64,000 bases of DNA from an uncultured Lachnospiraceae bacterium (lineage in GTDB: Bacteria > Bacillota > Clostridia > Lachnospirales > Lachnospiraceae): assembly GCA_910577015.1 (NCBI GenBank), contig CAJTKU010000001.1, forward strand, positions 185,298 to 249,297. Reading direction: 5' to 3'. Below the pieces are notes generated by a model. The model was not told the DNA's origin and searched no databases. It saw only the letters and a program-made list of their open reading frames with translations. Positions 33,643 through 57,741 of this stretch are shown here, in pieces. The stretch's first letter is position 1. Every line of letters begins with the position of its first letter. Both the position numbers and the translations under genes were made by a program.

Positions 33643-34146
33643 TTACTCTTCTATATATGTAATATTATCCGTTCCGCGGCTCAATCCTGCGATGCCGGTC
33701 CTCGCCAGTTCCAAAATCTCGTACCCTTCCAGCAGGCTGATAAAGGCGTCTATCTTTGTCTGGTCGCCGGTCATTTCCACAATCAGGCTTTCCGGACCCA
33801 CATCAATAATATTGGCGCGGAAAATCCCTGCCAGGGAAATCACTCCCTGCCGCTCGCTGGCCCTTGCGCGCACTTTAATCAGGGCAAGCTCCCTGTAAAC
33901 GCTCTCCTCCGGCCTTAACTCCTTGATATCCCTTATATCTACAAGCTTTGCAACCTGCTTTTCAATCTGCTCCAAAACCTGGTCGTCACCGCTTGTCACA
34001 ATCGTAATCCGCGAAAACCTGGGGTCTGCTGTCACCCCCGCTGTGATGCTCTCAATATTATAACCGCGTCTGGAAAATAATCCTGATATTCTGCTCAACA
34101 CGCCGGAAGTATTTTCCGCCAACAGTTGAAATACTTTTTTCTGCAA
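33643..34146 (-). CDS. ilvN: Acetolactate synthase small (regulatory) subunit, paralog 2
   Basis: ACT domain LLAENTSGVLSRISGLFSRRGYNIESIT plus a C-terminal ACT-like domain. The ORF track begins at TTG 34167. TTG 34146 is better spaced from GGAGG, so the start is uncertain. Confidence 0.85.
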   Translation of the reverse strand: MQKKVFQLLAENTSGVLSRISGLFSRRGYNIESITAGVTADPRFSRITIVTSGDDQVLEQIEKQVAKLVDIRDIKELRPEESVYRELALIKVRARASERQGVISLAGIFRANIIDVGPESLIVEMTGDQTKIDAFISLLEGYEILELARTGIAGLSRGTDNITYIEE

Positions 34147-34220
34147 TGCTTTTTCCTCCACTATCAATCATCCCTTAGTTTTTAACTATAGCAATAGTTG
34201 CGGGTGTTGTCAAGATTTTT

Positions 34221-34430
34221 GCATGAAGGGATGCTGTCGTTAGGATGTCGCGAGTGACGCGGGATGAAACGGATATTCCCGCGTCACCGCGCTTTCGCTC
34301 TGTTAAAAACGTAACAGTGCTAAGCTCGAAAATACCTCGCTAAGCGCTGACGTTTTTAAAAGGGTTCCTTCGGGAATATCCGTTCCATCCCGCTGTTTCC
34401 CAAAGCGGCCGCCTGACGGCATCCCGCATG
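34221..34430. repeat. Nested palindromic intergenic element, copy B1 (diverged, same orientation as A)
   Basis: gggatgaaacggatattccc pairs with gggaatatccgttccatccc. The outer pair is gcatgaagggatgc / gcatcccgcatg. The core is cgcgctttcgctctgttaaaaacg...cgtttttaaaag. Confidence 0.75.
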
Positions 34431-34513
34431 TACTGTAGTATTTTTTAGAAGTTTACGGGCAGGCGGCGTATCCTGCTAAATCAGGACACTTTGTGAGGGA
34501 ACGCCGTGTTACA

Positions 34514-34651
34514 GCAGCCGGAAGCCTTATATTCCTGTGAAGACCTTTTAAAAACGCCGGCATTTAGGCGCTGTATTTCAGCGCCTTACGTGCCGCTGCG
34601 TTTTTAAAGAGCGAAAGCGCGTCTGAATGGGAATATAAGGCTTCCGGCTGC
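34514..34651. repeat. Nested palindromic intergenic element, copy B2
   Basis: A perfect 21-bp basal stem, cagccggaagccttatattcc / ggaatataaggcttccggctg. The core is aaaaacgccggcatttag-gcgct(gtatttc)agcgc-cttacgtgccgctgcgttttta. Confidence 0.85.
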
Positions 34652-34692
34652 GTCACTCTCGTCACACCCTTTACCTTAAACGGCGCTTGCCC

Positions 34693-35181
34693 CTAGGTAT
34701 CGCTCTCCGAACACTTCGGCAGCGCCAGCGTCCCCGTCCTTGCCACTTCCACGATGCTGATGGATGCCAGCATCTGGATGAACAGCTTGGTTTTTTCGGG
34801 AATGTCGCAGACCTGAATCATCATCTGGCTCTTGGACATGTCCACGATATCCGCTTTCATCATTTCACAGATTTCCATGATTTCGCGGCGGGTGGTTTTG
34901 TTGTATTTTACCTTTATCAGCATCAATTCCCTGCTGATGCTGCGCGACTCATCAAAGGTTTTTACTTTTATGACATCCAGCTTTTTATTCAATTGTTTTT
35001 CTATCTGCTCTATGGTGCGCTCGTTGCCGCTGGAAACAATGGTCATGCAGGATACGGCGGAATCGTCCGTTTCTCCTACCGCAAGACTGTCAATATTGAA
35101 GCATCTTCTGGAAAAGAGCCCTGCCACCTTGCACAATACGCCGGAACGGTTCTCCACCAGTACTGAATATATCTTTTTCAT
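34693..35181 (-). CDS. ilvN: Acetolactate synthase small (regulatory) subunit, paralog 1
   Basis: ATG 35181 (MKKIYSVLVENRSGVLCKVAGLFSRRCFNIDSL). It lies 18 nt downstream of the ilvB stop. Confidence 0.88.
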   Translation of the reverse strand: MKKIYSVLVENRSGVLCKVAGLFSRRCFNIDSLAVGETDDSAVSCMTIVSSGNERTIEQIEKQLNKKLDVIKVKTFDESRSISRELMLIKVKYNKTTRREIMEICEMMKADIVDMSKSQMMIQVCDIPEKTKLFIQMLASISIVEVARTGTLALPKCSESDT

Positions 35182-35199
35182 AAGCAAAACCCTTCCTTC

Positions 35200-36816
35200 C
35201 TACTTTACCAAATCCATGGGGTCAATCAGGCATTCCAGCAGCATTGTCTTGTCCTCTTTTAAAAATGCGTCGATAATTTCCTCCGCTTTCTCCATATTTT
35301 CCAGCCTGAGGAACGGGATTTCATATGCCGCCGAAAGCTTTTCCAAATCAGGACTTCCCGAAAGGTCCACCACGGAATACTGGTCTTTATATGTGTAATG
35401 CTGGTATTCCCTTACCATACCCAGATAATTGTTTTTTAGGACGATTATCTTTACCGGTATCTGATGCTGTCTTATGGTCGCAAGTTCCATCATGGACATC
35501 TGGAAGGAGCCGTCGCCGCAGACAGCGATAACCTGCTTTGACATATCTGCCAGTTTTGCTCCCATAGCCGCCGGAATGGAATATCCCATCGTACCCATAC
35601 CTCCGGAGGTAAGAAATTTCCCCTCTTTCACAATATGATATCCGCAGGACCATATCTGGTTCTGTCCTACGTCTGCCACATAGACGCCGTCAGCCTGCAT
35701 TTTTTCGGATAGCCGGGTGATAAAAGCAGCCGGGTCCACATAGGCAGGATTGGGCGTCCTCTTTTTTTCCATGGTGGAACGGTATCCGTCCAACGCCTCT
35801 ATCCACTCTTCATGCTCGCAGGCAAATTCCTGTTGGGCAAAATCCATAAAAATATTTCTGGCGTCCCCTACCAACGGTATGGTCGGTCCCGCATTCTTAC
35901 CTATTTCCGCCGGGTCCACATCGATATGTACAAGCACCTTATTCTGCGTAATCAAATCCGGCTGGCTCACCGCGCGGTCTGCCACGCGCGCCCCCACCAT
36001 AATCAGCATGTCGGACTCATTCATTGCCCTGTTGGCATATGCTTTTCCGTTGTTTCCCACCATTCCGTAGTAGAGCGGATGCTCCGTGGGCATAACGCCG
36101 ATACCCATCATGGTGGATACAACCGGAATCCTGTGCTTTTCCGCAAAACTCCTAAGTTCCTCCTTGCCGCCGCTTAACAAAACGCCGCCGCCGGCACAGA
36201 TAATGGGACGTTTTGCATGTTCAAGCTCCTTTACCACTTTCTTAATCTGGACTGCATGTCCTTTGACCGTGGGCTTATAAGTCCTTAAGGATACTTCTTC
36301 CGGATAAGAAAAACGGCTGATTGCCGCATTCTGCACGTCAATGGGTATGTCAATCAAAACCGGACCCTTTCTTCCTGAATTGGCAATGTAGAACGCCTCC
36401 TTAAAAATCCGGGGAATCTCCTGTACATTTTTTACCAGATAGCTGTATTTCACGAAAGACTCAACCGCCCCCGTAATATCCGCCTCCTGGAACACATCGC
36501 TTCCCAGCAATTCACTGTCTACCTGTCCGGTAATGCAGATTAAAGGTATGCTGTCCGCAAACGCTGTTGCTATGCCGGTGATGACATTGGTGGCTCCCGG
36601 ACCGGACGTTACGGCGCACACACCGGGCCTGCCGGTGATTCTTGCCATGCCGCTTGCCGCATGTGCGGCATTCTGCTCCGTACGAATCAGAACGGTCCTG
36701 ATATCAGACTGTAAGATACTATTATAAAAAGGACAGATAGCGACTCCCGGATAGCCAAAGACTACTTCCACACCTTCCGCCTCGAGACATTTGATTATGG
36801 CATCTGCTCCTATCAT
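35200..36816 (-). CDS. ilvB: Acetolactate synthase large (catalytic) subunit
   Basis: 538 aa with MIGADAIIKCLEAEGVEVVFGYPG and the ThDP motif GDGSFQM...N. SD gggagg is upstream. Confidence 0.92.
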   Translation of the reverse strand: MIGADAIIKCLEAEGVEVVFGYPGVAICPFYNSILQSDIRTVLIRTEQNAAHAASGMARITGRPGVCAVTSGPGATNVITGIATAFADSIPLICITGQVDSELLGSDVFQEADITGAVESFVKYSYLVKNVQEIPRIFKEAFYIANSGRKGPVLIDIPIDVQNAAISRFSYPEEVSLRTYKPTVKGHAVQIKKVVKELEHAKRPIICAGGGVLLSGGKEELRSFAEKHRIPVVSTMMGIGVMPTEHPLYYGMVGNNGKAYANRAMNESDMLIMVGARVADRAVSQPDLITQNKVLVHIDVDPAEIGKNAGPTIPLVGDARNIFMDFAQQEFACEHEEWIEALDGYRSTMEKKRTPNPAYVDPAAFITRLSEKMQADGVYVADVGQNQIWSCGYHIVKEGKFLTSGGMGTMGYSIPAAMGAKLADMSKQVIAVCGDGSFQMSMMELATIRQHQIPVKIIVLKNNYLGMVREYQHYTYKDQYSVVDLSGSPDLEKLSAAYEIPFLRLENMEKAEEIIDAFLKEDKTMLLECLIDPMDLVK

Positions 36817-36864
36817 ACTGTTTCCTCCCTGCTGTTCTTTTTTGAATGATACACGTATACGGAC

Positions 36865-36894
36865 ATTTTAGCACAGTAAAGTATAATATTTCAA
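36865..36894 (-). promoter_or_regulatory. Putative ilvB promoter (TTGAAA-N18-TAAAAT, TG-extended)
   Basis: The minus strand reads ttgaaa tattatactttactgtgc taaaat. It lies between palindromic element C and the ilvB SD. Confidence 0.5.
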
Positions 36895-36906
36895 CAAAAA
36901 TTTTAT

Positions 36907-37091
36907 GATTCCGCATACGGCATGGCGGCAGCCCCGGCGCGCATTTGATTCCATAAAGGACCGTGTAAAAACACCGGCATTTAGAGGTTGTATTTTAACC
37001 TCTTATGTGCCGCTGTGTTTTTACCCGAGTGAGAACGTGTCCTGTTGGAACAAATGCGCGCCGGGGCTGCCGCCATGCCGTATGCGGAATC
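36907..37091. repeat. Nested palindromic intergenic element, copy C (185 bp, 41-bp perfect basal stem)
   Basis: gattccgcatacggcatggcggcagccccggcgcgcatttg (36907-36947) is the exact reverse complement of 37051-37091. The core is aaaaacaccggcatttag-aggtt(gtatttt)aacct-cttatgtgccgctgtgttttta. Confidence 0.9.
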
Positions 37092-37097
37092 ACAAAT

Positions 37098-39605
37098 TTA
37101 TCTCATCTGTTCCATAAGCCTGCCCGCCAGTTTTACTGCTTCCGCTGCGTCCTTGGAATATCCGTCCGCGCCGATTTCCCGTGCGTATTCTTCTGTGATA
37201 ACGGCGCCGCCCACCATGAATTTTGCAGTGACTCCCTGCTCTCTGGCGTACTTTATGACAGCTTCCATCTGCTTCATGGTCGTTGTCATCAGCGCGGAAA
37301 GGGCTATAATGGAAGCATTATGCTGCTTTGCCGCTTCAATAATTGTTTCTTTGGGGACGTCCTTGCCCAAGTCTACCACCCGAAAACCATAGTTTTTTAA
37401 CATCAGGGCCACCAGATTTTTACCGATATCGTGAATGTCCCCTTCCACCGTGGCAATGATGATGACGGGCATGTCTTTCCCGGTCTTCTCGGTAAGAAGC
37501 AGTGGTTCCAGCACTTCAATGGCAAGCTTCATTGCTTCCGCGCCTGCAATCAACTGTGGAAGGAAATACCTTCCGCTGTCAAAGTAATCCCCTACCGTGT
37601 TAATGGCCGGCAAAAGCACTTCGTCCAACAGCGCCCTTGGCTCTTCCCCTTCTGCAAGGGCATCCCGCGTTATCTGCACAATTCCGCTTTTGTTCCCTTT
37701 TAACACCGCTTCTTTCAGCATATGCCTTACCGGACTGCCTTCTTCCTTTCCGCCGTCCTTTTTGGCTTCCTTACCTTCCTGCCCCTTTTCCACGCTCTTT
37801 GCAGCTGCCGGAGCGGCCGCCTGCAAATGCCGCAGGGCTTCTTCTCGCTGTTCCCTCTTTTCTTTCAAAACGCCCGCATAAGATATGTAGCGCATGTCTG
37901 CGTCTTCTTTGTTCAAAAGCAAATCAGCCGCAAACGCACAGCCCATTAACAGTTCCTGTGATGGATTGGCAATCGCCATGGTAAGTCCCGATTGTATCGC
38001 CATCGTCAGAAAGGCCGTATTCACATAACCTCTCTCCGGCATTCCGAAAGATATGTTGGAAAGCCCGCAGATTGTAGCAAACCCTTCCTTTTTGCAGAAA
38101 CGGATTGTTTGCAGGGTTTCTAACGCCGCCGTTTTATTGGCCCCCACCGTATTCACCAGTCCGTCCACCACAATATCTTCCTTTTGAAATCCGAGGTCTT
38201 TTGCCCTCTCCCATATTTTGCGGATAATCTCCTTTTTTTCCTCCAGATTGGCCGGCAGTCCTGCGTCGGAAAGCGGAAGCAGGATAAACATGGCGCCGTA
38301 TTTTTTTACAATGGGAAGCAACCGCTCAAATTTTTCCTTCTCATAGGAGACGGAATTGATTAAAGCCCTGCCGGGGTAACGCCTAAGCGCCGCTTCCAGA
38401 ACGGAGATATGGCTGGAATCAAGGGAAAGGGGCAGACTGGTAACCGTGCCCACCTCCTCAATCGCCTTCAGCATCATCTCCTTTTCGTCTATACCACCCA
38501 TCCCCATGTTGACGTCAAGGATACTTGCTCCGCAGTTCTCCTGTTCCTCCGCAAATTCCCTGACCATATCAAGGGAGCCTTCTTTAAGCGCCGCCTGCAG
38601 TTTCTTTTTGCCGGTAGGGTTGATGCGCTCCCCCACCACGATAAAAGAATTATCCAAGGTAAAGGACACCGTCTGTCTTTCAGACGCAAGACAGCGAAGG
38701 CCTGACTGTCCTTTACACCTTCCCTGCCTTTCCACTCCCAATTTCTCTTTAAGCAATGCAATATATGAGGGCTGGGTGCCGCAGCATCCGCCAAATATAG
38801 AAGCCCCTGCTTCTTTCAACAGCCTCATTTCCTCTGCAAATTCTTCGGGCTGCATGTCATAACAGGTATTTCCCTCCTTGTCCACAAAAGGAAGCCCTGC
38901 ATTGGGTTTCGCTATAACGGGAATCCTCACCGCCTGCGCCATTTCCCCGATAATACCCTGCATGGCAGCAGGACCCGTGGAGCAGTTTGCCCCGATAGCG
39001 TCTGCGCCTAAAGAGGAAAGCACTACTGCGGCAGTTAACGCGTCTGTCCCGAAAAGGGTTCTGCCGTCCCCTTCAAAAGTCATCGTCACCATAACGGGTA
39101 AATCGCAGGTTTCTTTGGCTGCAATGAGGGCTGCCCTGGTCTCCTGCAGGCTCATCATGGTTTCTATGACAAGCAAATCAACCCCTGCATCCAGAAGCGC
39201 CAGAATCTGCTCTTTATAGATGGTAATTAATTCCTCAAAATCCATCTTTCCGATAGGGGCAAGCTGCTGTCCCGTCATGGTAAGGTTTCCTGCAATATAA
39301 GCTTTACCTTCCGCCGCCTGCCTGGACAATGCCACCAGTTTTTTTGTCATATCCCTAAGATTATTCTGCAGGCCGTATTCCGCAAGTTTAATCCTGTTTG
39401 CCGAAAAAGTAGGTGCATAAAGGATATTACTGCCCGCTTTAACATAAGCCTTTTGCAGTTCCAGAAGTACCCCGGGGTTTTCCAGAATCCACTTTTCAGG
39501 ACAGACGCCCGCAGGCATTCCCGCTTTCATCAGGTTAGAACCGGTCGCCCCATCCAGATATATATTATTTTTACTGCTCCAAGCCGCAAATTCCTTTTTC
39601 GTCAT
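37098..39605 (-). CDS. metH: Methionine synthase, short form (Hcy-binding + pterin-binding + B12-binding; no reactivation domain)
   Basis: ORF 37098..39653; ATG 39605 (MTKKEFAAW). Domain order was read from motifs (GGCCGT region, pterin-binding barrel, DIHDIGKN B12 loop). The protein ends right after the Rossmann B12 domain. Confidence 0.88.
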   Translation of the reverse strand: MTKKEFAAWSSKNNIYLDGATGSNLMKAGMPAGVCPEKWILENPGVLLELQKAYVKAGSNILYAPTFSANRIKLAEYGLQNNLRDMTKKLVALSRQAAEGKAYIAGNLTMTGQQLAPIGKMDFEELITIYKEQILALLDAGVDLLVIETMMSLQETRAALIAAKETCDLPVMVTMTFEGDGRTLFGTDALTAAVVLSSLGADAIGANCSTGPAAMQGIIGEMAQAVRIPVIAKPNAGLPFVDKEGNTCYDMQPEEFAEEMRLLKEAGASIFGGCCGTQPSYIALLKEKLGVERQGRCKGQSGLRCLASERQTVSFTLDNSFIVVGERINPTGKKKLQAALKEGSLDMVREFAEEQENCGASILDVNMGMGGIDEKEMMLKAIEEVGTVTSLPLSLDSSHISVLEAALRRYPGRALINSVSYEKEKFERLLPIVKKYGAMFILLPLSDAGLPANLEEKKEIIRKIWERAKDLGFQKEDIVVDGLVNTVGANKTAALETLQTIRFCKKEGFATICGLSNISFGMPERGYVNTAFLTMAIQSGLTMAIANPSQELLMGCAFAADLLLNKEDADMRYISYAGVLKEKREQREEALRHLQAAAPAAAKSVEKGQEGKEAKKDGGKEEGSPVRHMLKEAVLKGNKSGIVQITRDALAEGEEPRALLDEVLLPAINTVGDYFDSGRYFLPQLIAGAEAMKLAIEVLEPLLLTEKTGKDMPVIIIATVEGDIHDIGKNLVALMLKNYGFRVVDLGKDVPKETIIEAAKQHNASIIALSALMTTTMKQMEAVIKYAREQGVTAKFMVGGAVITEEYAREIGADGYSKDAAEAVKLAGRLMEQMR

Positions 39606-39675
39606 TTTAATAACCATACCTTTCCGTAACCTGCAAATTTGAGCCACAGGCACAAATTGCGAGTGAAAAATTTAT

Positions 39676-39767
39676 AAGTGCCGCATTTCCGGCATTTTCC
39701 GGCGTGGAACTTAGAAGTTCTCCGCGAAACAGCCTTTGCTGTGAGCGACTAGAACTTCTTTCCACGC
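39676..39767. repeat. Possible related palindromic element, copy D (weak)
   Basis: gcgtggaacttagaagttct / agaacttctttccacgc form an inverted repeat. It is preceded by gtgccgcatttccggcatttt, which holds the family motifs GTGCCGC and CCGGCATTT in a different arrangement. Confidence 0.35.
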
Positions 39768-39930
39768 TACCAACATTTTACAGCTTTGCTGCGAGTGTTA
39801 AAAGTACTTCACACAATATTATCACGATTTTACGAATTGGGCAATTGGATTGTGTTTCCTTATTGCTTTCACGGCAAAAATATGATAAATTCAATATGTT
39901 ACTTAAATACTGACTACGGAGGACGGGTAA

Positions 39931-40404
39931 TTGAAAAACAGATTTCTGCTGCTCTTGTCATCACTTGTTTTATGCTTATCTCTGGCAGGCTGCGGCGAAG
40001 ACCCCCAATTAACACAGTTTAAAAATGACATTGACTCTTTTTGCAACGAAATCGCTGTCATTGACACCAACATCAACAGCATAGACGCACAGTCCGAAAA
40101 TGCAAAATATGAGCTTCTCGGCTATCTTGACCAGCTGGACCAGTCTTTCAAGACACTGGCGGAGATTACCGTACCGGAAGAATACGCATATATTGAAGGG
40201 CTTGCAGATGAGGCAAGCAGTTATATGACCATTGCCGTGGAGTCTTATCACGAAGCGTTTGGGGAAAGTTCTTACAATGAATACACTGCGGAGTATGCAA
40301 GGGAAAATTATGAGAGAGCCTACAAACGCATCACAGTTATTATAAAACTATTGCACGGGGAAGATATTTCCGACCTGGGTGCGACCATTGAAGAAAGCGA
40401 ATAA
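39931..40404 (+). CDS. Lipoprotein (157 aa)
   Basis: TTG start 8 nt after GGAGGA. Signal peptide with lipobox LSLAGC. The mature part is not recognised. Confidence 0.7.
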   Translation: MKNRFLLLLSSLVLCLSLAGCGEDPQLTQFKNDIDSFCNEIAVIDTNINSIDAQSENAKYELLGYLDQLDQSFKTLAEITVPEEYAYIEGLADEASSYMTIAVESYHEAFGESSYNEYTAEYARENYERAYKRITVIIKLLHGEDISDLGATIEESE

Positions 40405-40409
40405 ATATT

Positions 40410-40449
40410 TACCCAATAAAAAACCGCATAGGCGGTTTTTTATTGGGTA
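40410..40449. terminator. Bidirectional terminator shared by convergent genes
   Basis: A perfect 18-bp stem tacccaataaaaaaccgc-atag-gcggttttttattgggta. The right arm contains the last codons of the deacetylase gene. Confidence 0.8.
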
Positions 40450-41231
40450 AAATCAGATAACGGCCTGAACTCATATCCCATTTCTTCCCATCTGGTAAGC
40501 AGTTCATCGAGAATTTCCCCGTTTGTCTGCGAGGTGCTATGTAACAGTACAATGGCTCCGGGATGTATCCTGCCAATTAATTTATCGAAAGCTTCTTCTC
40601 TTGTCGGCTGGTTATCCTGATACCAGTCCACATAGGCGAGACTCCAGAAAAAGGTATGATATCCCAGTTCTTTTGCCATCTGCAAATTCTCCTTACTGTA
40701 CTTTCCCTGGGGCGGCCGGTAATACATTGCCAAATCCTCTCCGGTTATCTCCTTAAACAGGGCGGAAACATCTTCCATTTCCCTTTGAAAAGAATCCATG
40801 CTGGAAATCTGTGACATATCAGGGTGATGAAAAGTGTGATTGCCCACCGTATGGCCTTCTTCCACCATTCTCTTCACGATATCCGGCGCTGATTCCAGAA
40901 AATGACCCACCACAAAAAAGGTAGCCGGAGCATCATGATTTTTCAGGGCGTCCAGTATCGGTTCCGTATTGCCGTTTTCAAATCCACAGTCAAACGTCAG
41001 GTATATTACCATCTTACTGTCATCACCCACATAATGGGCATTATATTTTTCCAGTTCATCACTGGTAGCATTCCCTGTCGGCTGCGCACCTTCTTTTCCA
41101 AACCCCAATCCCCAGTTTTCGGTTTCCACCAGATGGGATGAGGCAGTTTCCACATAATGTACCACATATCCTGCCGCCCTGCCCAAAAAGAACATCGCTA
41201 CAAAAAGCGGCAATACCCAAAATTTTTTCAT
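40440..41231 (-). CDS. Polysaccharide deacetylase (NodB/PdaA-like)
   Basis: 263 aa with an N-terminal signal/TM. Contains TFDCGFENG and HTFHHPDM NodB motifs. Confidence 0.85.
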   Translation of the reverse strand: MKKFWVLPLFVAMFFLGRAAGYVVHYVETASSHLVETENWGLGFGKEGAQPTGNATSDELEKYNAHYVGDDSKMVIYLTFDCGFENGNTEPILDALKNHDAPATFFVVGHFLESAPDIVKRMVEEGHTVGNHTFHHPDMSQISSMDSFQREMEDVSALFKEITGEDLAMYYRPPQGKYSKENLQMAKELGYHTFFWSLAYVDWYQDNQPTREEAFDKLIGRIHPGAIVLLHSTSQTNGEILDELLTRWEEMGYEFRPLSDFTQ

Positions 41232-41320: not shown

Positions 41321-41857
41321 TTAGAAATATCTGTAAAAACTTGGGTCATTGATAACCACATTCAAATATACGCAGAAGAAAACGATTGCCACTACAATGC
41401 TGATTGCAGATACAATAATTGCCGCAATACCCAGCCCGGATTTTTTCTTAACCTGTCCGATAATGGAAAAGATAAGACCCACTATACCAATCAATGCGGA
41501 AATCCAGCTTAAAATACAGGAAGACAAAAGCGCTAAGATAGCAATTACAAAGCCTGCAATAGACAATCCGCTGGTGCCGCCTGTGGTCTGCATCGGAACC
41601 GCATAAGGCTGCTGGTACATATTCTGGTCCGGCATCTGCTGGTATGCATTCTGCTCATAACCAGTCTGCTGGTACGGCTGCTGATAGCCCTGCTGATAAT
41701 TAGGCTGCTGATAGCCCTGCTGTTGATAACCCGGCTGTTGATAGTTAGGCTGCTGATAACCCGGCTGCTGATAGTTAGGCTGCTGGTAGTTCGATTGTTC
41801 CGGCGTCTGTGAAGGCTGCTGCCCGGAATAGTTGTTATTGAAATTTTGTCCGTCCAT
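41321..41857 (-). CDS. Membrane protein with N-terminal Q/P/Y-rich repeats (QPNYQQPGYQQ) and C-terminal two-TM domain
   Basis: 178 aa. The tandem repeats are visible in DNA at 41640-41800. The C-terminal TM hairpin resembles those of 43208..43792 and 43935..44213. Confidence 0.7.
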   Translation of the reverse strand: MDGQNFNNNYSGQQPSQTPEQSNYQQPNYQQPGYQQPNYQQPGYQQQGYQQPNYQQGYQQPYQQTGYEQNAYQQMPDQNMYQQPYAVPMQTTGGTSGLSIAGFVIAILALLSSCILSWISALIGIVGLIFSIIGQVKKKSGLGIAAIIVSAISIVVAIVFFCVYLNVVINDPSFYRYF

Positions 41858-43207: not shown

Positions 43208-43792
43208 TTAATAATAATAATCAAATAAGTCTTCAAAATCATCCAGGTCAAAGCTGTCGCCAAAGGTACTCTTTAAATCATTTTTGGCCTTGCAGCTTCC
43301 GCCCACACAGCCATAGCAGGTATAACCGCCGCTGACTGCACCGCAAATACCGCAGCTTGCTGCAAAAATAACGCCAAAAATCAATCCCAGTATTCCGCAG
43401 ACCAAACCTGCGGAACCCTTTGCATTATTGGTCTCCTTCCTTGCGCTGATACCCGTAACCAATGCAACAACGCCCAAAATCACTGCAAGCAGACCGCCAA
43501 ATACACCAAACATAATGCCGCCAAATACTGCAACAATGATGCTGATGACACCGCAGATAGTCGAAATCGTTGCATTCACATTACTGCCTCCATCCGGTGC
43601 AGGAACAGGCGCTACAGGCATCTGACCGGGCGTCTGGTAAACCGGTCCATTATTAACCGGCATTCCGTTGTTTACCGGAGTACTGTTATTAACCGAAGCG
43701 CTGTTGTCTGTCTGTACGCCTAATGCTGTACCGCAGTTCGGACATACATTTGCCCCATCCGGCACTTGGTTTCCACAATTACCACAAAACAT
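43208..43792 (-). CDS. Zinc-ribbon + multi-TM membrane protein
   Basis: ATG 43792 (MFCGNCGNQVPDGANVCPNCG) behind ggaggg. An N/P/V-rich linker precedes G/A/I-rich TM helices. Confidence 0.7.
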   Translation of the reverse strand: MFCGNCGNQVPDGANVCPNCGTALGVQTDNSASVNNSTPVNNGMPVNNGPVYQTPGQMPVAPVPAPDGGSNVNATISTICGVISIIVAVFGGIMFGVFGGLLAVILGVVALVTGISARKETNNAKGSAGLVCGILGLIFGVIFAASCGICGAVSGGYTCYGCVGGSCKAKNDLKSTFGDSFDLDDFEDLFDYYY

Positions 43793-43934: not shown

Positions 43935-44213
43935 TTACACAGTCATAAAAAATAAACCTCTTCTGGCTGCGCCGCACATACTGCAGCTTACTGCAAAAAA
44001 AACTCCGAATATCAATCCCATTATACCGCAGACAAAACCGGCGGTTCCCTTTGCGCCATTGGTTTCCTTTCTTGCGCTGATACCAGTTACCAATGCAACA
44101 GCGCCCAAAACCGCTGCAAGCAGACCGCCAGACACACCGAACATGATACCGCCAATTTCCGCAACAATGATGCTGATAACGCCAAAGATGGTCGAAATCG
44201 TCGCTTTTAACAT
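43935..44213 (-). CDS. Stand-alone paralog of the TM domain of 43208..43792 (92 aa)
   Basis: ATG 44213 behind ggaggagaaagg. About 85% nucleotide identity by eye between 44010-44215 and 43380-43600. Confidence 0.65.
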   Translation of the reverse strand: MLKATISTIFGVISIIVAEIGGIMFGVSGGLLAAVLGAVALVTGISARKETNGAKGTAGFVCGIMGLIFGVFFAVSCSMCGAARRGLFFMTV

Positions 44214-44268
44214 CCTTTCTCCTCCATTAAGGCAATAAATCTTGCAAAAATGCGTTGATATTTTATGT

Positions 44269-48933: not shown

Positions 48934-49659
48934 TTACCTGCTGATGAACAGCTTTTCCGTAACCTGCACCGGATTCTTGTCTGCCTTTATCGTCCTTGAT
49001 ACCGGTTTACTCCAGATGCACTTAAAATCATCCGGTGCCGCGCTGCTGCTTATCAGCACGATATTCTCCGCACTCATTGCTCTTACCCACTGCCAAAATT
49101 CTCCATAGTCAAAACCCTTGCTTATTCCATACTCCTTTGTACCCTCATATGGAGGATCGCAATAGATAACCGCCCCTTGCGTGTTGAGCAACTTATAATC
49201 ACTACAGATAAACTCGACACCCTTTAAGTCCTCAGCCTGTTTTATCAGATTCCTCAATGCCTCTTCGTAGTAATTCCTTACCCCATTTTCTGTATGCACT
49301 ATTCCGGCATATCCCCCATCAAAGAACCGGCCATTATAGCTTGCCAGATACCCGATAGCTCCCACATACCATTTTTCATATATGCCGGTCTGCTCATAAA
49401 AGCACTTTCTCACTTCTGAGTAATGCTCTTTCGTAACAAATCCCGGCAGTTCTTCGAGCCTGTCAAGATTTCTGAGCAGCTCTATCAAGTGTTCCTGCTT
49501 ATCATGTGCAAACCTTTTCCTTGCATGGATTTTGTCTATGATATTGCATCCGCCACAGAATGGCTCTATGTACGCCCACGGTTGGTTATCATCTATATAT
49601 CTCTGGATGATAGGCACTATATGCCGGGCAACTTTACTTTTGCTACCCATGTACTTCAA
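48934..49659 (-). CDS. DNA adenine methyltransferase (Dam/D12 class)
   Basis: TTG start at 49659, 7 nt after ggaggg. KYMGSKSKVARHIVPI (AdoMet motif region) and the catalytic DPPY (VIYCDPPYEG). Confidence 0.88.
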   Translation of the reverse strand: MKYMGSKSKVARHIVPIIQRYIDDNQPWAYIEPFCGGCNIIDKIHARKRFAHDKQEHLIELLRNLDRLEELPGFVTKEHYSEVRKCFYEQTGIYEKWYVGAIGYLASYNGRFFDGGYAGIVHTENGVRNYYEEALRNLIKQAEDLKGVEFICSDYKLLNTQGAVIYCDPPYEGTKEYGISKGFDYGEFWQWVRAMSAENIVLISSSAAPDDFKCIWSKPVSRTIKADKNPVQVTEKLFISR

Positions 49660-49671
49660 TGCAAATCCCTC

Positions 49672-50439
49672 CTATGCCGTTGCCAGCTGTTTATTCAGCA
49701 GAGCATCGAACATTTTGAAACCGTAGATGAATCCCTGCATCTCTGCCTCGATTGCCACGCCGTAAAGGGCATCTTCCAGCCTATTGCTCTCCTGGGCTTT
49801 CAGCTGAGTGGACTTCATTACCTCGTAGAACTTCTGGTATTTCTCCGTCAGCTCCGTTATCTCCCGGCCCTCTACTGCCGGTCCAGTGATAAAACGGTTG
49901 AACATATCACAATATTCCTCGTACTCACTTCTCGGCTTTCCCTCCAGAAGAAACTCTCCGCCAGCCCCGACGCTCACAGCGGCTTTCTTTTCTGGATGAA
50001 ACCGCTCCTGGATCGCCTGGTCGAATCTCCTTATACCGTCTGCAACGTACTTGATTCCGCTGCCGTACTTTGCAACCATTTCCCGGTATTCCATGCAGGC
50101 GCTTTCCGTCATTTCATACATCGGATACGATTTCCTGTTTTTGTGGGAGCAGACAAACGAAGTGAGGAAATACCCCCTCTCTTTTCCGTCCGTTTCCTCC
50201 GAACACAGGAGCTTTGCTATCTGCTTGAATACTGCAGAATGTGTCCTCCCCAGCGCATCCGCCACTTCACGGCTTGTCATAGTTGCGCCCGGCTTTTCCT
50301 GCGGCTTTGCCTCTTTTACTTCCGGAGCTTTCAAAACAATCTCCACAATATCGCTCGCAGACACATTTCCGGCAATTCCTTTGATGCAGGCAGCGATTTT
50401 TTCCGCATCGTCATGCCCGATATTCAGTCTTATGCTCAT
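49672..50439 (-). CDS. Rha-like phage regulatory protein
   Basis: 255 aa. MTSREVADALGRTHSAVFKQIAKLL resembles the Phage_pRha HTH region. Confidence 0.5.
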   Translation of the reverse strand: MSIRLNIGHDDAEKIAACIKGIAGNVSASDIVEIVLKAPEVKEAKPQEKPGATMTSREVADALGRTHSAVFKQIAKLLCSEETDGKERGYFLTSFVCSHKNRKSYPMYEMTESACMEYREMVAKYGSGIKYVADGIRRFDQAIQERFHPEKKAAVSVGAGGEFLLEGKPRSEYEEYCDMFNRFITGPAVEGREITELTEKYQKFYEVMKSTQLKAQESNRLEDALYGVAIEAEMQGFIYGFKMFDALLNKQLATA

Positions 50440-50693
50440 GCCGCACTCTCCTTTCTGAGTAATTCCAGCAACGGATGCCAGGGTCTTGCCCCACGCAGGC
50501 GGCTGATGATCTTTTTCAAATCGACCTCCTGCTTATCTACCCACCGATAATCCTGGTACTTCCCTGCGCTTCTCTCGTTTACCGGCCTGTCGTGAAACCC
50601 GTCCGTGATCTTGAACCGTTCCGGCCTCTTTTCATCCTCGTTAAACGCCACATACTGCTTATTCCCGTGAATGCAGTAGCCAACAATCTTCAT
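50436..50693 (-). CDS. Hypothetical protein (85 aa)
   Basis: ATGA overlaps at both ends. Confidence 0.5.
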   Translation of the reverse strand: MKIVGYCIHGNKQYVAFNEDEKRPERFKITDGFHDRPVNERSAGKYQDYRWVDKQEVDLKKIISRLRGARPWHPLLELLRKESAA

Positions 50694-51397
50694 GTGCCCT
50701 GCCTCCCCTCGTACCGGTCATGAATAGAAATCGGATATTTCGATTTCGTGATCTCCCTGAACCTGCTGTCTGAGGTATAGAGGAAATTTCCGCCAGCCAT
50801 ATACCAGCGCTTAGGAAAATATGCAGGCTTACAGTCAATGTACTGCTCGCCGCAACAATTTCTCCATTCGATATATACGCACTGCCTTATATCCTCCGGC
50901 TCAAACGGCCCTTTCTGCTCTGCTAAGATATATAAATCGCTTGCGTGTGCAGAAATTCCGTTGTTGGTACAATCCCCCAGCTTGTTGTCCCGGTACACTC
51001 CCGCTGTAAGGCAGCTCTCAATGTCAAAATTTGTCCGCATCCAGTCCTGTACTTCATCCCTGTACTTGCATCCGGACCAAATCTCTCCTATATACACCAG
51101 CTCGTTGTCAAACTTCTGGATAATCCAGCAATCTCCGCCCACGGGAAGTACCGCCTGTAACTGGATATACTCCTTTCTTTCTCCGTCATACGCCACTTTC
51201 TTAACGCATGTCGGATTACTTTTCTCAGATACGCTATGCTGCTGGATGAACTTTTCCAGCGCTTTTTCCGCATACCCTTCCGGGACGTCCTCCGGATTGG
51301 TTGCCACATCCCCATGTTCCAGCACCCCGTACTTGTTGGAAATCTCCATCCAGGTACCCTCCATGTGCAGAACAAAGCCATCTTTTTCTACCCGCAT
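50690..51397 (-). CDS. Hypothetical protein (235 aa)
   Basis: ATG 51397 (MRVEKDGFVLHMEG) is 7 nt after ggagga. The longer ORF-track start overlaps the upstream gene. Confidence 0.5.
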   Translation of the reverse strand: MRVEKDGFVLHMEGTWMEISNKYGVLEHGDVATNPEDVPEGYAEKALEKFIQQHSVSEKSNPTCVKKVAYDGERKEYIQLQAVLPVGGDCWIIQKFDNELVYIGEIWSGCKYRDEVQDWMRTNFDIESCLTAGVYRDNKLGDCTNNGISAHASDLYILAEQKGPFEPEDIRQCVYIEWRNCCGEQYIDCKPAYFPKRWYMAGGNFLYTSDSRFREITKSKYPISIHDRYEGRQGT

Positions 51398-51399
51398 TG

Positions 51400-51639
51400 T
51401 CATTCCTCCTGTTCTCTCTTTTTCCTTTCCCTTTCTCGCCTTTCTGCTAATACCACATAGTCTCCGATATGGTAGCCATTGATGATGTTTACTGCCTCCA
51501 GCTCTGTGAGATTGCACCTGGCCTGTAATTCTATTCTCAGCTTTCGTCTATCTCCGATGTCCTGCAGACCGTTTGGAGGCAGAAGTCTCGCCCTGTCTCT
51601 ATATTCATTTGCGATTTTTCTGGTAAGAACTTCTGCCAT
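51400..51639 (-). CDS. Hypothetical protein (79 aa), basic C-terminus
   Basis: Fits the coupled gene array; no motif recognised. Confidence 0.45.
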   Translation of the reverse strand: MAEVLTRKIANEYRDRARLLPPNGLQDIGDRRKLRIELQARCNLTELEAVNIINGYHIGDYVVLAERRERERKKREQEE

Positions 51640-51642
51640 TCC

Positions 51643-51831
51643 TTATACCCTTTCCACATAATCAACGCTGTCCGTCTGGAAACCATTCTCTGCACAAAAA
51701 TCAATCCAACATTCCAGCAATTCCGGCAGATCATGCGCATCGAACTGCGTTTCATCGCCGTCATTAAACCCTATATTGTAGGTACCGCCTCCTGCCCGGA
51801 CGACACCTGCGGCTGCTTTTGCCAATGTCAT
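51643..51831 (-). CDS. Hypothetical acidic protein (62 aa)
   Basis: ATGA overlap with the upstream gene. Confidence 0.45.
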   Translation of the reverse strand: MTLAKAAAGVVRAGGGTYNIGFNDGDETQFDAHDLPELLECWIDFCAENGFQTDSVDYVERV

Positions 51832-52754
51832 TGTCCTGCCTCCTGCATTTCTTCCAGCTTTTTGATAACCAGCTTTAAGGCATACCTGGCATTATCTGTA
51901 AGCTGCCTCTGCCATGCCGACTGGCTCGGTGCCCAGCGGAAACCATTGCTCTTTAATACCTCCCGCACTTCCGGCTCAGGCTTTCCGTCAAAGAACAGCT
52001 GGAGCCTCATTGCCTCCGTATTCTCAACGATCTTGAAGAACTGATTTTCTGTTTCCAGCGTTCCTCTTTCCTTCGTGGCCTGCAATTCCTTTATGCGCCC
52101 CTCTATCCGGTGGATGTTGGCGTTATTATTCTGGAGGGCATAATCCGGATAACCAACCCTCCCGCAGAAGTCCGGCTCGCGCAAATCCTTAATCTGCTCG
52201 TCCGAATATCCCATGATTCTCAGCTGTTCATCGCCTTTCTCCGTATCTTTCAAGCGGACCGCCTTATTCGCCGCTTTCATGCGCTCCTGCATATCTTTCA
52301 GATTTTCCAGTTTTTCTTCCAGCCTTTCGATTGCGTCCTCGTCACTGGACTTAATCAGCTCCTTTCCGTGCAGGATGCTCTCCATTTTGCTGAGGATGCC
52401 CTGCGTTTCATTGAAAAACTGATGATTCTTGTCCCACGCCTGGTTCTGCTTTTCCTTTTTTCTCACAGGGAAATTCCCGGCACCGGAAATCATCACAGAC
52501 GGACACATACACCCGATATGTATATCCCGATTCATGTACTCTGCCATTCTCTTCGAGTACCTGCCCGCCATGCTATATACCCGGTCTGCCTGGTCCGGCC
52601 TCGCCTCCACAATTTGGTCTGCCAATTCATAGGCCCGGTCAACATATCCCTTGTACTCTGCCGTCTTGCTGCCCTCCTTGTAATCGCTGAAAGACATCAT
52701 CTGGTGCGCTGTCCTTGCAGATGCCTCATTGATACTGTAATAAACTCTCTCCAT
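51828..52754 (-). CDS. DUF3560-like protein
   Basis: 308 aa. The C-terminal RLQLFFDGKPEPEVREVLKSNGFRWAPSQSAWQRQLTDNARYA matches my recollection of the DUF3560 C-terminal module of phage/ICE proteins. Confidence 0.55.
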   Translation of the reverse strand: MERVYYSINEASARTAHQMMSFSDYKEGSKTAEYKGYVDRAYELADQIVEARPDQADRVYSMAGRYSKRMAEYMNRDIHIGCMCPSVMISGAGNFPVRKKEKQNQAWDKNHQFFNETQGILSKMESILHGKELIKSSDEDAIERLEEKLENLKDMQERMKAANKAVRLKDTEKGDEQLRIMGYSDEQIKDLREPDFCGRVGYPDYALQNNNANIHRIEGRIKELQATKERGTLETENQFFKIVENTEAMRLQLFFDGKPEPEVREVLKSNGFRWAPSQSAWQRQLTDNARYALKLVIKKLEEMQEAGQ

Positions 52755-52951
52755 TACGCTGTTTCCTCCAATCTTTCTCTGCGCTTTACCATGCGCACAT
52801 CACATTTTCCGTATGCCTGCAGGTTCTCCCGGTACTCCCGGAAAGAACGTCTTGCATCTTCCCTTGTGTACTCGCTGTTCTCCACTTCCCATCCGTATCC
52901 GTAATTCGTTTCAATATCCCAGCGATCCCTTGTCTTTCTCTGATATGCCAT
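52754..52951 (-). CDS. Hypothetical protein (65 aa)
   Basis: SD ggtggtg upstream. TAATG overlap with the downstream gene. Confidence 0.45.
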   Translation of the reverse strand: MAYQRKTRDRWDIETNYGYGWEVENSEYTREDARRSFREYRENLQAYGKCDVRMVKRRERLEETA

Positions 52952-52953
52952 AC

Positions 52954-53262
52954 CTACACCACCTTTAATGAAATAATGATATGCTCCAACGTGAAACTCT
53001 TGTCGCTGTCATACAGAGTACAGATGCCGCTTTCAAACTTCCAGAATGCCGCCTTACTCCAGCCCAGGTATGAACCCCTGCCATTGTTTGCCAGCGTTTC
53101 CCGGCTGTCCGGCTGATCCGGAATGATGCTATAGAACCCTGTGCTGTCAGCAACATTCACTCTCCTGCGCTGTCCTACGCATCCCTGCCGGGCATGGGCG
53201 ACAATTTCAAACTCTGCCCCCTTTACAAGCGTTCTCTTCAACTGCGCCAAATTCTTAACCAT
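52954..53262 (-). CDS. Hypothetical protein (102 aa)
   Basis: SD aggagg upstream. Confidence 0.5.
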   Translation of the reverse strand: MVKNLAQLKRTLVKGAEFEIVAHARQGCVGQRRRVNVADSTGFYSIIPDQPDSRETLANNGRGSYLGWSKAAFWKFESGICTLYDSDKSFTLEHIIISLKVV

Positions 53263-53272
53263 GCTTTTCCTC

Positions 53273-53614
53273 CTATTCCCATCCCGGCTGGCAATCTTCC
53301 GGAGCCGCCCACGGATGTTTTGCTATGTATCTTGCAGAGACTTCGCCCCTCCAGGCTTTCATCGTAAACCGATCATTCATCAGAATGTTGAATCTGGTGG
53401 TACCCATGAGAGCCTTTAACTCATTCCTCAGTACACTGATTTCATCGTTCATCTTTTCCAATGTCTGGTGGAGTCTGCTGCCTACATCGATTCCCCCTCC
53501 AAACCACATGGCCTCGTCTGCCATCAGCGTCGCCTCACACTCCAGGCCGTCATGCTCTGCGAATTTCTGTAATTCCGTCCTCGTCCACATGATTTTCTGG
53601 TGCATTCTCAGCAT
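53273..53614 (-). CDS. Hypothetical protein (113 aa)
   Basis: SD aaaaggag upstream. Confidence 0.5.
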   Translation of the reverse strand: MLRMHQKIMWTRTELQKFAEHDGLECEATLMADEAMWFGGGIDVGSRLHQTLEKMNDEISVLRNELKALMGTTRFNILMNDRFTMKAWRGEVSARYIAKHPWAAPEDCQPGWE

Positions 53615-53694
53615 ATAGCCACACTCCTTTTCGATTATGCGTTTTCAATCATCTCTCTAGCTCTCAACTGCGAGCTTTCGGGGTAAAAAAATAC

Positions 53695-53910
53695 TTAGTT
53701 CCAGTCCAGCTCTCTAAGTTCCTGGGCCTTATCTTCATGCCCATTACTCTCAAGCAACCAGATGTCAAACTGTACCGCCGCATCCCCAAATTCAACCCCG
53801 CAATCATTGAGGCTATACACTTCATACATCACTTCCTCTACCATCTGGCAGTTGCCGTTTGCTACCAAACTGCCACAATGCTCTGCACTTTCATCTGGCC
53901 TAATTTCCAT
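53695..53910 (-). CDS. Hypothetical protein; start unclear
   Basis: The 71-aa ORF has no SD at 53910. A 38-aa ORF with a strong SD (ATG 53978) overlaps it in another frame. See findings. Confidence 0.3.
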   Translation of the reverse strand: MEIRPDESAEHCGSLVANGNCQMVEEVMYEVYSLNDCGVEFGDAAVQFDIWLLESNGHEDKAQELRELDWN

Positions 53911-53995
53911 TCTGAGGACTCTATATCATGGCTATCTCTCTCGTTCAAAGCTGCTCTGTAATCGTTCATATCGTACATATCCTTACCTCCAAGTG

Positions 53996-54081
53996 CTTTA
54001 TTTGTTGTTTGATTATGTATATATTATACTTCGCAACTGCGAGTTTGTCAATAGTTTTACTTCTCAAAATACAAATTTTTT
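53996..54081. repeat. 86-bp promoter-operator cassette, copy 1
   Basis: Near-identical to 62414..62499. A 64-nt run is identical (54007-54070 = 62425-62488). Confidence 0.9.
54023..54051 (-). promoter_or_regulatory. Consensus sigmaA promoter TTGACA-N17-TATAAT with dyad in spacer (copy 1)
   Basis: The minus strand reads ttgaca aactcgcagttgcgaag tataat. An A/T-rich tract lies upstream. Confidence 0.75.
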
Positions 54082-54431
54082 CAGATTTTTCTCAGAATAA
54101 TCTCGTATCCAAGAGCCTTCGCCATCCGGTAAAAGCTGTCGTATCTCATGTTCACAGTTCCCCGGTTCAGCGTTTGGCTGACATTCTGCCTTACGCATCC
54201 CATCTTTTCCGCAAGCTCTTTCTGGTTCACATCCTCTCTTTCCATGATCTGCCGGATAGTGGCCGCTGCATTTTCTCCGCTCAACTCACCTTTCAGCTTT
54301 TTTACTGCCTCCCGGAGAGCCTCCGCATCAACCCTCCAAATATCTTCCGGATCGTCCTTGTCTATCATGCTTTCGCAATGCTCTGACAGGCTTTCCAGCT
54401 GTCTGATGATTTCCCCTATAGTCATACTCAA
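54081..54431 (-). CDS. XRE-family HTH protein (candidate phage regulator)
   Basis: 116 aa. The C-terminal half is IRQIMEREDVNQKELAEKMGCVRQNVSQTLNRG. The stop codon abuts promoter cassette copy 1. Start is TTG 54431 or ATG 54425. Confidence 0.7.
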   Translation of the reverse strand: MSMTIGEIIRQLESLSEHCESMIDKDDPEDIWRVDAEALREAVKKLKGELSGENAAATIRQIMEREDVNQKELAEKMGCVRQNVSQTLNRGTVNMRYDSFYRMAKALGYEIILRKI

Positions 54432-55243: not shown

Positions 55244-55246
55244 CCG

Positions 55247-55861: not shown

Positions 55862-55875
55862 ATCGCATACCTCCT

Positions 55876-56929: not shown

Positions 56930-56939
56930 TCCCTTGCAC

Positions 56940-57368: not shown

Positions 57369-57378
57369 AGCCTGCCTC

Positions 57379-57669: not shown

Positions 57670-57678
57670 GTCTGCCTC

Positions 57679-57741
57679 CTATTTCTTTTTCTTCTCCATC
57701 CCCATGAATACCAAAAATGCCAACACCACTATTGCCGCCAT
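57679..57741 (-). CDS. 20-aa hydrophobic micro-ORF
   Basis: ATG 57741 behind aggagg gives MAAIVVLAFLVFMGMEKKKK. Confidence 0.3.
   Translation of the reverse strand: MAAIVVLAFLVFMGMEKKKK

Follow-up and report, generated by a model that had tools for sequence, protein, structure and literature searches.

An apparently undescribed, probably mobile family of palindromic intergenic repeats in gut Lachnospiraceae, with one copy inserted between metH and ilvB

In the 64,000-nucleotide stretch of an uncultured Lachnospiraceae genome analyzed here (contig CAJTKU010000001.1; the whole stretch is referred to as the window), the genes metH and ilvB are separated by a long, nearly perfect palindrome, element A (positions 36899 to 37099, plus strand), which belongs to a family of non-coding and probably mobile palindromic repeats, apparently undescribed so far, that occurs in a few gut Lachnospiraceae. 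The arms of these repeats are complementary within each copy and different between copies, whereas the core that they enclose is asymmetric and conserved. On balance, element A is probably a copy of a selfish, non-autonomous, non-coding palindromic repeat family of the kind represented by REPINs, ERIC sequences and MITEs (miniature transposable elements with inverted repeats), restricted to a small gut-dwelling clade of Lachnospiraceae. Its novelty lies within the known class of bacterial palindromic intergenic repeats, and no publication describing it was found in a literature search that was not exhaustive.

The two arms of the outer stem of element A (P1; 36907 to 36947 and 37051 to 37091, plus strand) are exact reverse complements over 41 of 41 nt, and the repeat can be extended to 49 nt at 96% (36899 to 36947 with 37051 to 37099) at the cost of two mismatches; a comparable inverted match occurred in none of 100 dinucleotide shuffles of the window. 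Within these arms, the 5' strands of P2 and P3 (36965 to 36979, plus strand) pair with 37008 to 37024, and the pairing covaries across copies: P2 is formed by GTAAAAACAC (36965 to 36974) with GTGTTTTTAC (37015 to 37024), and P3 by CGGCA (36975 to 36979) with TGCCG (37008 to 37012), next to a conserved CT bulge at 37013 to 37014. The segment from 36980 to 37007 (plus strand), which is exchanged in some strains as described below, holds an internal loop (TTT/TATG) and the apical hairpin P4, the apex at 36983 to 37003 reading AGAGGTT-GTATTTT-AACCTCT. The 3' arm contains additional sequence, CCCGAGTGAGAAC (37024 to 37036). All of these features, i.e., the 41/41 inverted repeat, the inner pairings, the apex and the insertion, had been described from the letters alone in an earlier note on this DNA and were confirmed on the sequence; what the note had called an unpaired insertion is, however, partly a conserved mini-hairpin of the GNRA type (GAG-T-GAGA-A-CGTG, 37027 to 37039, plus strand), two pairs of which covary. 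A 221-nt region around element A has a predicted folding energy of -143 kcal/mol, compared with -60.8 +/- 4.7 for shuffled sequences (z = -17.6). The sense strand, defined as the one that carries the conserved asymmetric core, is the plus strand at this locus, and metH and ilvB are both on the minus strand.

A search with the core motif, as the earlier note had proposed, revealed a multicopy family and not a feature unique to this locus. A two-part exact pattern returned 29 loci from a species-representative genome collection, every one of them in a Lachnospiraceae metagenome-assembled genome (MAG), with 15 from MGBC100230 and the others from genomes named Acetatifactor or Eisenbergiella. Divergent copies were added by a profile search and by a covariance model (CM), R1, bringing the count to 4 copies in the window, 35 in the loci and 1 in a GenBank record. 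The family thus has at least 40 members, spread outside the window over about eight related Lachnospiraceae MAGs, with at least 16 copies in a single related MAG and at least 4 in the 64-kb window. Element A scored 131.8 bits on the plus strand and 20.6 bits on the minus strand. The other copies in the window are copy B (11157 to 11347, minus strand, 127.7 bits), located 16 nt past the stop codon of an FtsW/PBP fusion gene, 84% identical to A over 135 nt and with arms that are 89% complementary to each other; copy C of subtype 2 (34492 to 34666, plus strand, 121.9 bits), 27 nt past the ilvN stop codon; and the divergent copy D (34225 to 34430, minus strand, 80.8 bits), which is head-to-head with C. 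A weak CM match at 62595 to 62673 was discarded, as it has no core motif.

The viral_contigs and plasmid collections contained no match to the family. The lone match suggestive of a phage origin, MT838426.1 (locus L110), filed as "UNVERIFIED: Bacteriophage sp.," is a mislabeled fragment of a bacterial chromosome encoding shikimate kinase, a flavin reductase, a DHH/DRTGG/CBS phosphatase and an M23/LysM peptidase, with a divergent family copy at 3179 to 3306. An Rfam cmscan of positions 34000 to 41000, which include copies A, C and D, returned no family at E <= 1 apart from a chance miRNA-like match at 40405 to 40453. A T-box or riboswitch leader for ilvB was rejected on the same grounds, and also because the element is missing upstream of ilvB in about 70 relatives.

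Every copy consists of one foldable interrupted hairpin of 110 to 255 nt. P1 is 20 to more than 45 bp long, with a sequence that differs between copies and pairing that is almost purely Watson-Crick within a copy. It opens into a three-way junction, the 3' side of which bears a 2-bp mini-hairpin closed by GAAA, GAGA, GGGA or GGAA, and both of its pairs covary across copies, one being G-C 33 times and A-U once and the other C-G 24 times and U-A 10 times. P2 is mostly AAAAAC/GTTTTT, with divergent copies having GCTTACCGT/ACGGTAAGC (L009), TGAAACCAGT/ACTGGTTTCA (L110) or AAGAAACGT/ACGTTTCTT; P3 is CGG(C)/(G)CCG, the internal loop is YTTAG/CTTAYG, and P4 is an 8-bp apical stem, seven of whose eight pairs covary, with a conserved loop, G-TNYTT-T. 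Among 34 aligned copies GCCG-CT-G is invariant or nearly so, standard pairs fill 97.5% of the cells (81.3 +/- 0.6 in shuffles and 39 to 49% with slid partners), and 23 of the 29 core pairs show changes on both sides. If the loop-closing pair is excluded, G-U pairs make up only about 7 of some 950 cells. The CM scores of 120 to 134 bits on the sense strand, against 17 to 34 bits on the antisense strand, indicate that the conserved features are strand specific. How unequally the parts are constrained can be seen from L010, an unrelated locus in another species, where the 115 nt between the arms differ from those of A by 1 nt and the arms are 76% identical; the core and the apical stem are, therefore, far more constrained than the arms. 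In two copies (L004, 276 to 422, and L018, 4850 to 4995) the internal loop has an additional small hairpin on its 5' side, TTGCCTTGC-GAG-CAAGGCAA in the former and GTCATGC-CTG-CATGAC in the latter, from which it follows that this loop tolerates insertions. Its likeness to the 11-nt GNRA receptor (CCUUAG/UAUG against CCUAAG/UAUGG) is partial, was judged by eye and is not claimed here.

The arms behave differently from the core. In 15 copies of subtype A they are 93% complementary within a copy (over 40 nt), while the identity of a given arm from one copy to another is only 56%. When related copies are compared, 105 arm differences are mirrored on the opposite arm, 39 are one-sided and 9 are of other kinds, and 75 of the mirrored differences are transversions. 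The mismatches within arms include 16 of the C.A/A.C type and 8 of the G.T/T.G type, i.e., G.T is enriched on neither strand. Orthologous copies show the same pattern. Copy C and its ortholog in a sister species (L005; about 87 to 88% DNA identity) differ by one change in about 105 nt of core, compared with a background of about 12%, and their arms differ in three places: (i) one clean mirrored change from A-T to C-G, (ii) a mirrored change from C-G to G-C accompanied by an extra change that leaves one mismatch, and (iii) a one-sided difference of 2 nt. At the site of element A, the window has CCGTA/TACGG on both arms, and the orthologous copy in L124 has CAAAA, the family consensus, on its one visible arm; counted by eye, arm divergence between the two is about 18%, against about 12% in nearby intergenic DNA. 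The arms, then, diverge at roughly the intergenic rate, and the changes are mirrored on both of them.

The scarcity of G-U pairs and the predominance of transversions among the mirrored changes argue against compensatory evolution at the RNA level and are as expected of DNA copying from arm to arm. Such a process is known: PMC8794818, PMC8604942 and PMC7202029 describe how polymerase template switching between imperfect inverted repeats homogenizes the arms, and this process, or an equivalent one, probably keeps the 41-bp stem of A perfect. Quasi-palindrome correction by template switching (treated in these sources and in PMC5941160) explains arms that are perfect within a copy and different between copies, together with mirrored multinucleotide and transversion changes. 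On the other hand, it is a general mutational process, which leaves unexplained both the resistance of the asymmetric core to symmetry and the spread of copies.

The genes on either side of element A allow its arrival to be traced. MetH is encoded by an 851-amino-acid open reading frame (ORF; 37098 to 39653, minus strand) with S-methyl_trans, Pterin_bind and B12-binding domains, and the large subunit of acetolactate synthase, the product of ilvB, by a 538-amino-acid ORF (35200 to 36816, minus strand). The metH stop codon TAA occupies 37100 to 37098, and the perfect arm begins 6 nt beyond it, the distance given in the earlier note, whose assignments of metH, ilvB and the ilvB promoter also proved right. 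The promoter-like site (TTGAAA-18-TAAAAT, with TG; 36894 to 36865, minus strand) is situated just past A, outside the element. A metagenome scan with IlvB yielded 80 loci at 80 to 89% identity, about 70 of which have metH directly upstream. Where metH is kept, the metH-ilvB spacer is mostly 20 to 130 nt long and about 340 to 980 nt in a minority; none of the 80 loci contained the element according to the profile search, and neither did the 44 representatives searched with the CM. Nearer to the window species, loci L118 to L123 (91 to 92% IlvB identity) have a spacer of 95 to 106 nt without the element, and in L124 (94%), whose contig begins inside an arm, the element occupies the same position. 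The TTGAAA...TAAAAT promoter is kept in element-free sister species (L118, L122 and L123) and is therefore ancestral.

The flanks of A record a duplication of the target. The flank that follows the element in L124, CAGATAAATTTATG, is identical at 12 of 14 positions to the one that precedes it in the window, GAGATAAATTTGTG, which includes the metH stop codon; this is a target duplication of about 14 bp. In the window, the duplication copy upstream of A on the gene strand is GAGATAAATTTGT (37092 to 37104, minus strand), with the metH stop TAA in it, and the downstream copy (36892 to 36906, minus strand), which overlaps the -35 region of the ilvB promoter, has drifted to ATAAAATTTTTGTTG; the flank at 36892 to 36906 is orthologous to the single-copy GTAAAAA(T)TT..TGTTGAA of the element-free sites in L118 and L122. 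The common ancestor of the window species and L124 acquired element A by insertion directly 3' of the metH stop codon, a lineage-specific event that goes beyond what the earlier note had proposed. At exactly the site of A, L118 to L123 (about 1085 to 1130) display a perfect 17-bp duplication of TGTTAAAGTAAAAAATT split by GGAAAT, the usual terminus of subtype-A arms, and L122 holds TGTTAAAGTAAAAAATT once; the duplication together with GGAAAT may be a trace left by an element that inserted independently and was then lost.

Comparison of strains at this site, which had also been suggested, found the element in five independent assemblies. In one group of strains (the window, L111/L114, L112 and L113), A is identical save for a single-nucleotide polymorphism in one arm of L112 and L113. 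A C36935>T change in one arm is carried by samples SRR35270347 and SRR35270348. In a second group (L115 to L117) the arms and the core are identical and the whole apical segment is exchanged, AGAGGTTGTATTTTAACCTCT and the adjoining loop nucleotides being replaced by GGATACCGTACTTTGGTATCC in L115/L116; 12 of 28 nt differ there, compared with about 3 in the remaining 300 nt or so, and IlvB is near-identical between strains. The second group has also undergone a 385-bp deletion that removes C and most of D, leaving the 3' arm of D, while L005 has a different D deletion of 111 nt, bounded by TCCCGC repeats. The spacer between the two ilvN-like genes, where C and D are located, is 526 nt long in the window and 98 to 111 nt in sister species. 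The deletions and the apical exchange indicate that copies are dispensable and deletion prone, and that central segments move between them. These results bear on the earlier suggestions that the palindrome is more than a terminator needs, that long palindromes are unstable, and that this one was either formed recently or is actively maintained. Overall they are supported, instability by the two independent partial deletions of D and the loss of C in one strain group, and maintenance by the excess of mirrored over one-sided arm differences, transversions included, and by mirrored changes in orthologous copies.

All copies are intergenic, about two thirds of them lie no more than 60 nt from a stop codon, and some are found between divergent genes. 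The orientation of the sense strand is unbiased, at approximately 12:7 with respect to the gene upstream, as counted by eye in the table of ORFs, and 14:19, with 5 ambiguous, relative to the majority gene strand. The flanks of the copies are unrelated, which leaves no shared promoter, and the neighbors are housekeeping genes. Stretches of about 8 kb around the copies were inspected, with Pfam searches of the neighbors of clustered copies (L009 and L018) and of 46 ORFs of the window, and no transposase, reverse transcriptase or recombinase was seen near any of the 40 copies. In the flanks of L007, L018 and L029, a second short repeat, CACATAG(G/A)(A/G)CGTAAGC(G/A)CACT(T/C)TTCGCGA, occurs in tandem beside several subtype-2 copies, and a 1.7-kb stretch of L018 (3187 to 4879) holds three copies and no Pfam-annotated gene.

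We favor selfish DNA because the family has a narrow range with many copies and a lineage-specific insertion with target duplication, and because its copies are dispensable, leave remnants on deletion and exchange segments with one another. In such a family, a mutation in one arm would be copied to, or erased from, the other, which would keep the arms Watson-Crick paired, most likely by intramolecular template switching as the hairpin extrudes during replication (quasi-palindrome correction); selection on RNA would, according to the substitution pattern above, not be the cause of arm perfection. The conserved asymmetric core may be the part recognized, on a folded single strand, by an enzyme that copies or moves the element in trans. 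That a strand-asymmetric core is conserved within helices that vary and yet are always paired suggests recognition of a folded strand, and the near-absence of G-U pairs, the lack of orientation bias and the lack of a shared promoter would point to single-stranded DNA (ssDNA) in preference to RNA; mini-hairpins of the GCGAAAGC type are stable in DNA and RNA alike. Locally, the insertion would have parted metH from ilvB, leaving ilvB to use the ancestral promoter just downstream. On the metH strand the extended stem of A ends in AAAAUUU followed by UUGUUG, and with its very stable predicted fold and AUAAAAUUUUUGUUG behind it, the hairpin may stop or stabilize the metH transcript; a terminator scan gave no hit at A.

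Several observations weigh against this interpretation: (i) the evidence for mobility is wholly comparative, with no direct sight of movement; (ii) neither a mobilizing enzyme nor an autonomous partner was present in the loci examined, and no genome-wide search was made; (iii) flanking direct repeats of about 14 bp at A, 11 bp at L002 and 7 bp at L017 stand beside most other copies with none or at most 5 bp; (iv) the similarity of the two flanks of a copy (LCS) is 5.03, compared with 4.36 across copies, a weak signal with no fixed length; (v) covariation in a DNA palindrome can come from arm homogenization alone, so that by itself it is no proof of selection for folding; and (vi) a structured RNA useful to the host would also fit the strong conservation of the core between orthologous copies, the loop of the GNRA type and the loop nucleotides that are conserved. 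An empty site for the 11-bp repeat of L002 was not found, since the nearest homologs of the flanking gene are 85% identical and not syntenic upstream.

A variant to which we assign a rather low probability is that no conventional transposase may be needed for the family to spread and persist. The arms would then be regenerated or homogenized by fold-back (template-switch) synthesis primed from the conserved core, and new copies would arise through template switching in replication or through a hairpin-specific enzyme, e.g., of the HUH type, with variable target duplications of 7 to 17 bp at AT-rich sites just after stop codons. The apical hairpin would be an exchangeable module whose discrete sequence types are kept across species: AGAGGTT is identical at unrelated loci in two species and is swapped for GGATACC within one, which would suggest specificity for a partner molecule.

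It is similarly doubtful that the repeats are a structured RNA with a function for the host, either a cis element in 3' untranslated or intergenic regions (acting in termination, insulation, transcript stabilization or processing by RNase III) or a gene for a small RNA, whose core would serve as a tertiary or protein-binding module and whose stems would covary under selection on the RNA. In keeping with this explanation, the stems covary very strongly and the loops are conserved, the pairs that close the GNRA tetraloops covary as well, the CM scores are strongly asymmetric between strands, copies are frequently close to stop codons, the C core is conserved at roughly 99% between species, and the apical loop is closed by a G.U pair that is conserved in 30 of 34 copies, and only on the sense strand. 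In addition, A has a U-rich tail on the metH strand. No U-tract, however, follows copies B and C. The sense strand shows no preference for lying sense or antisense to the gene upstream, the flanks share no promoter, G-U pairs are nearly absent and mirrored changes are mostly transversions, unlike what a G-U-mediated path would leave, strains of the one species can do without copies, the element is missing from about 70 related genomes in which synteny is the same, and Rfam has no match. These facts sit better with selfish DNA.

The case for a classical MITE, i.e., an internally deleted insertion sequence moved by cut-and-paste through a DDE transposase that binds terminal inverted repeats, is likewise slender. 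The copies are small, ORF-less, multicopy and intergenic, with a lineage-specific insertion among them and direct repeats flanking some, and subtype-A arms have a recognizable terminal consensus, (T)GAATTTCCGCAT. What makes a DDE-driven MITE less likely is that the termini are the least conserved part and that the duplications, from 0 to about 17 bp, have no fixed length; the stem ends at variable positions, and it is the central part that is conserved. The two terminal repeats of a MITE should decay independently, whereas here changes are mirrored. No transposase was encountered in the inspected neighborhoods, there is no plasmid match, and the sole phage-record match is really bacterial chromosome.

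That A is a switch or protein-binding site at the DNA level, either an inverton with a flipping core or a cruciform to which a protein of the nucleoid or of replication binds, is very unlikely: long perfect inverted repeats do surround an asymmetric 103-bp center beside a promoter, and the core is found in both orientations across loci, but it has the same orientation in five of five independent assemblies of A and in both species at C, contains no promoter-like site, is framed by arms too different between copies to be a likely site for a sequence-specific recombinase, and has no recombinase gene nearby. Finally, the possibility that A is a recent inverted duplication without parallel elsewhere, or a product of faulty assembly, a caveat raised in the earlier note, can be put aside almost entirely, since, although a fold-back chimera would resemble the 41/41 repeat and short-read contigs L112, L113, L117 and L124 break inside A, there are at least 40 family members across genomes, an orthologous copy exists in a second species (L124), and A is found in independent assemblies of the same species (L111/L114, DRR014782; L115 and L116, ERZ128027xx), being identical on independent long contigs of 743 kb (ERZ941203), 230 kb (ERZ12802852) and 145 kb. 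Palindromic copies break short-read assemblies: the Logan and ENA short-read contigs L112, L113, L117, L124, L125 and L126 start or end inside copy A, B or C.

Among known repeats, ERIC (IRU) sequences come close in habit. They are imperfect palindromes of about 127 bp, located in intergenic regions, often just after stop codons within transcription units, and they share with the present family the use of either orientation, a patchy distribution among related species and the lack of a known transposase. The two are set apart by description, with no sequence similarity that we know of; ERIC copies match a single consensus over their whole length, unlike the copies described here, and ERIC arms that are hypervariable and still perfectly complementary have, to our knowledge, not been reported. 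BOX, RUP and SPRITE of pneumococcus, Correia elements of Neisseria and bcr1 of the Bacillus cereus group are also small non-coding repeats that form stable hairpins between genes and can terminate or stabilize transcripts, but they have conserved terminal inverted repeats, fixed duplications (TA for Correia and RUP, TTTAT for bcr1) or, in the case of BOX, a modular build, in which, by description, they differ from this family. MITE-like repeats of Firmicutes and Neisseria are covered in reviews (PMC2229807, PMC10969869).

REPINs are hairpin-forming mobile doublets of REP sequences that carry compensatory changes and are thought to be moved by RAYT on ssDNA (PMC3116915); mobilization by RAYT (TnpA-REP) is described for Pseudomonas and other Proteobacteria (PMC3116915; PMC8266576). 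The similarities extend to extragenic, multicopy, non-coding hairpin units with compensatory changes on both sides of the hairpin, clusters of copies, decayed remnants, a supposed action as folded ssDNA, and asymmetric deletions that leave few terminal nucleotides, for which GGAAAT in L118 and the one-arm remnants of D may be compared. The differences concern (i) the conserved part, as REPINs have conserved ends (REP 16-mers with a GTAG tag) and a free middle, the reverse of the layout here, with its conserved center and freely varying ends, and (ii) the size, about 70 to 110 bp in REPINs against 110 to 255 bp. No RAYT gene was present in the window or the loci examined, no genome-wide search having been made. 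REP units of 20 to 40 nt with GTAG/CGTC end tags, by the criteria of PMC3733652, were rejected as an identity, because the ends are variable and CGTC occurs only at the inner junction (GCGCGTC) in many copies. Integron attC sites, which are defined by R''/R' boxes (RYYYAAC/GTTRRRY) at the outer ends, arrays in one orientation flanking cassettes, and an integrase, were rejected as well: AAC/GTT lies deep inside the element and covaries away in divergent copies, and the copies are dispersed among housekeeping genes in either orientation. For a retron msr-msd, no reverse transcriptase was found beside any copy examined, and the element is multicopy; an inverton does not agree with the single orientation in five assemblies of A and two species for C, nor with the absence of a promoter-like site inside.

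Gut Lachnospiraceae are abundant and their non-coding repeats almost unstudied, and a well-defined structured family is added to them here, in a phylum (Firmicutes) for which one survey (PMC3733652) did not report REPs or REPIN-type elements. The family offers an unusually clean natural case of concerted evolution of palindrome arms, while an asymmetric core resists symmetry. Copies differ between strains, by the C/D deletion and the apical swap, and could serve as strain markers; A itself splits a junction that measures 20 to 130 nt in most relatives. A mobilizing activity, if found, could be a new enzyme that recognizes single-strand hairpins.

The remainder of the window holds a number of minor features. 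Downstream of ilvB there are two tandem ilvN-like genes (33643 to 35187), ilvN at 34693 to 35187 and a second at 33643 to 34167, the latter with a promoter of its own (TTGACA-17-TATAGT, 34213 to 34185, minus strand). The region from 49000 to 64000 is a strand-mixed island of ORFs mostly without a Pfam match, the recognizable ones including DUF3560, an HNH_3 endonuclease, DUF3846, DarA_C and a LysM protein; its appearance is that of a prophage remnant or an integrated mobile element, and it shows no link to the hairpin family. Inside the island, a 77-nt direct repeat (54005 to 54081 and 62423 to 62499; 99% identical, 8.4 kb apart) could represent att-like ends or duplicated regulatory regions. 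A second direct repeat, of 268 nt at 81% identity, occurs at 43324 to 43591 and 43955 to 44222, 631 nt apart. At 41606 to 41809, ten units of a tandem repeat resembling CTGCTGATANNNNGG, with a period of 12 to 15 nt, lie inside the minus-strand ORF 41321 to 41857, which probably encodes a low-complexity repeat protein. The 22-bp near-perfect hairpin at 40405 to 40453 (minus strand), located at the 3' end of a polysaccharide deacetylase gene and overlapping its stop codon, is most simply an intrinsic terminator.

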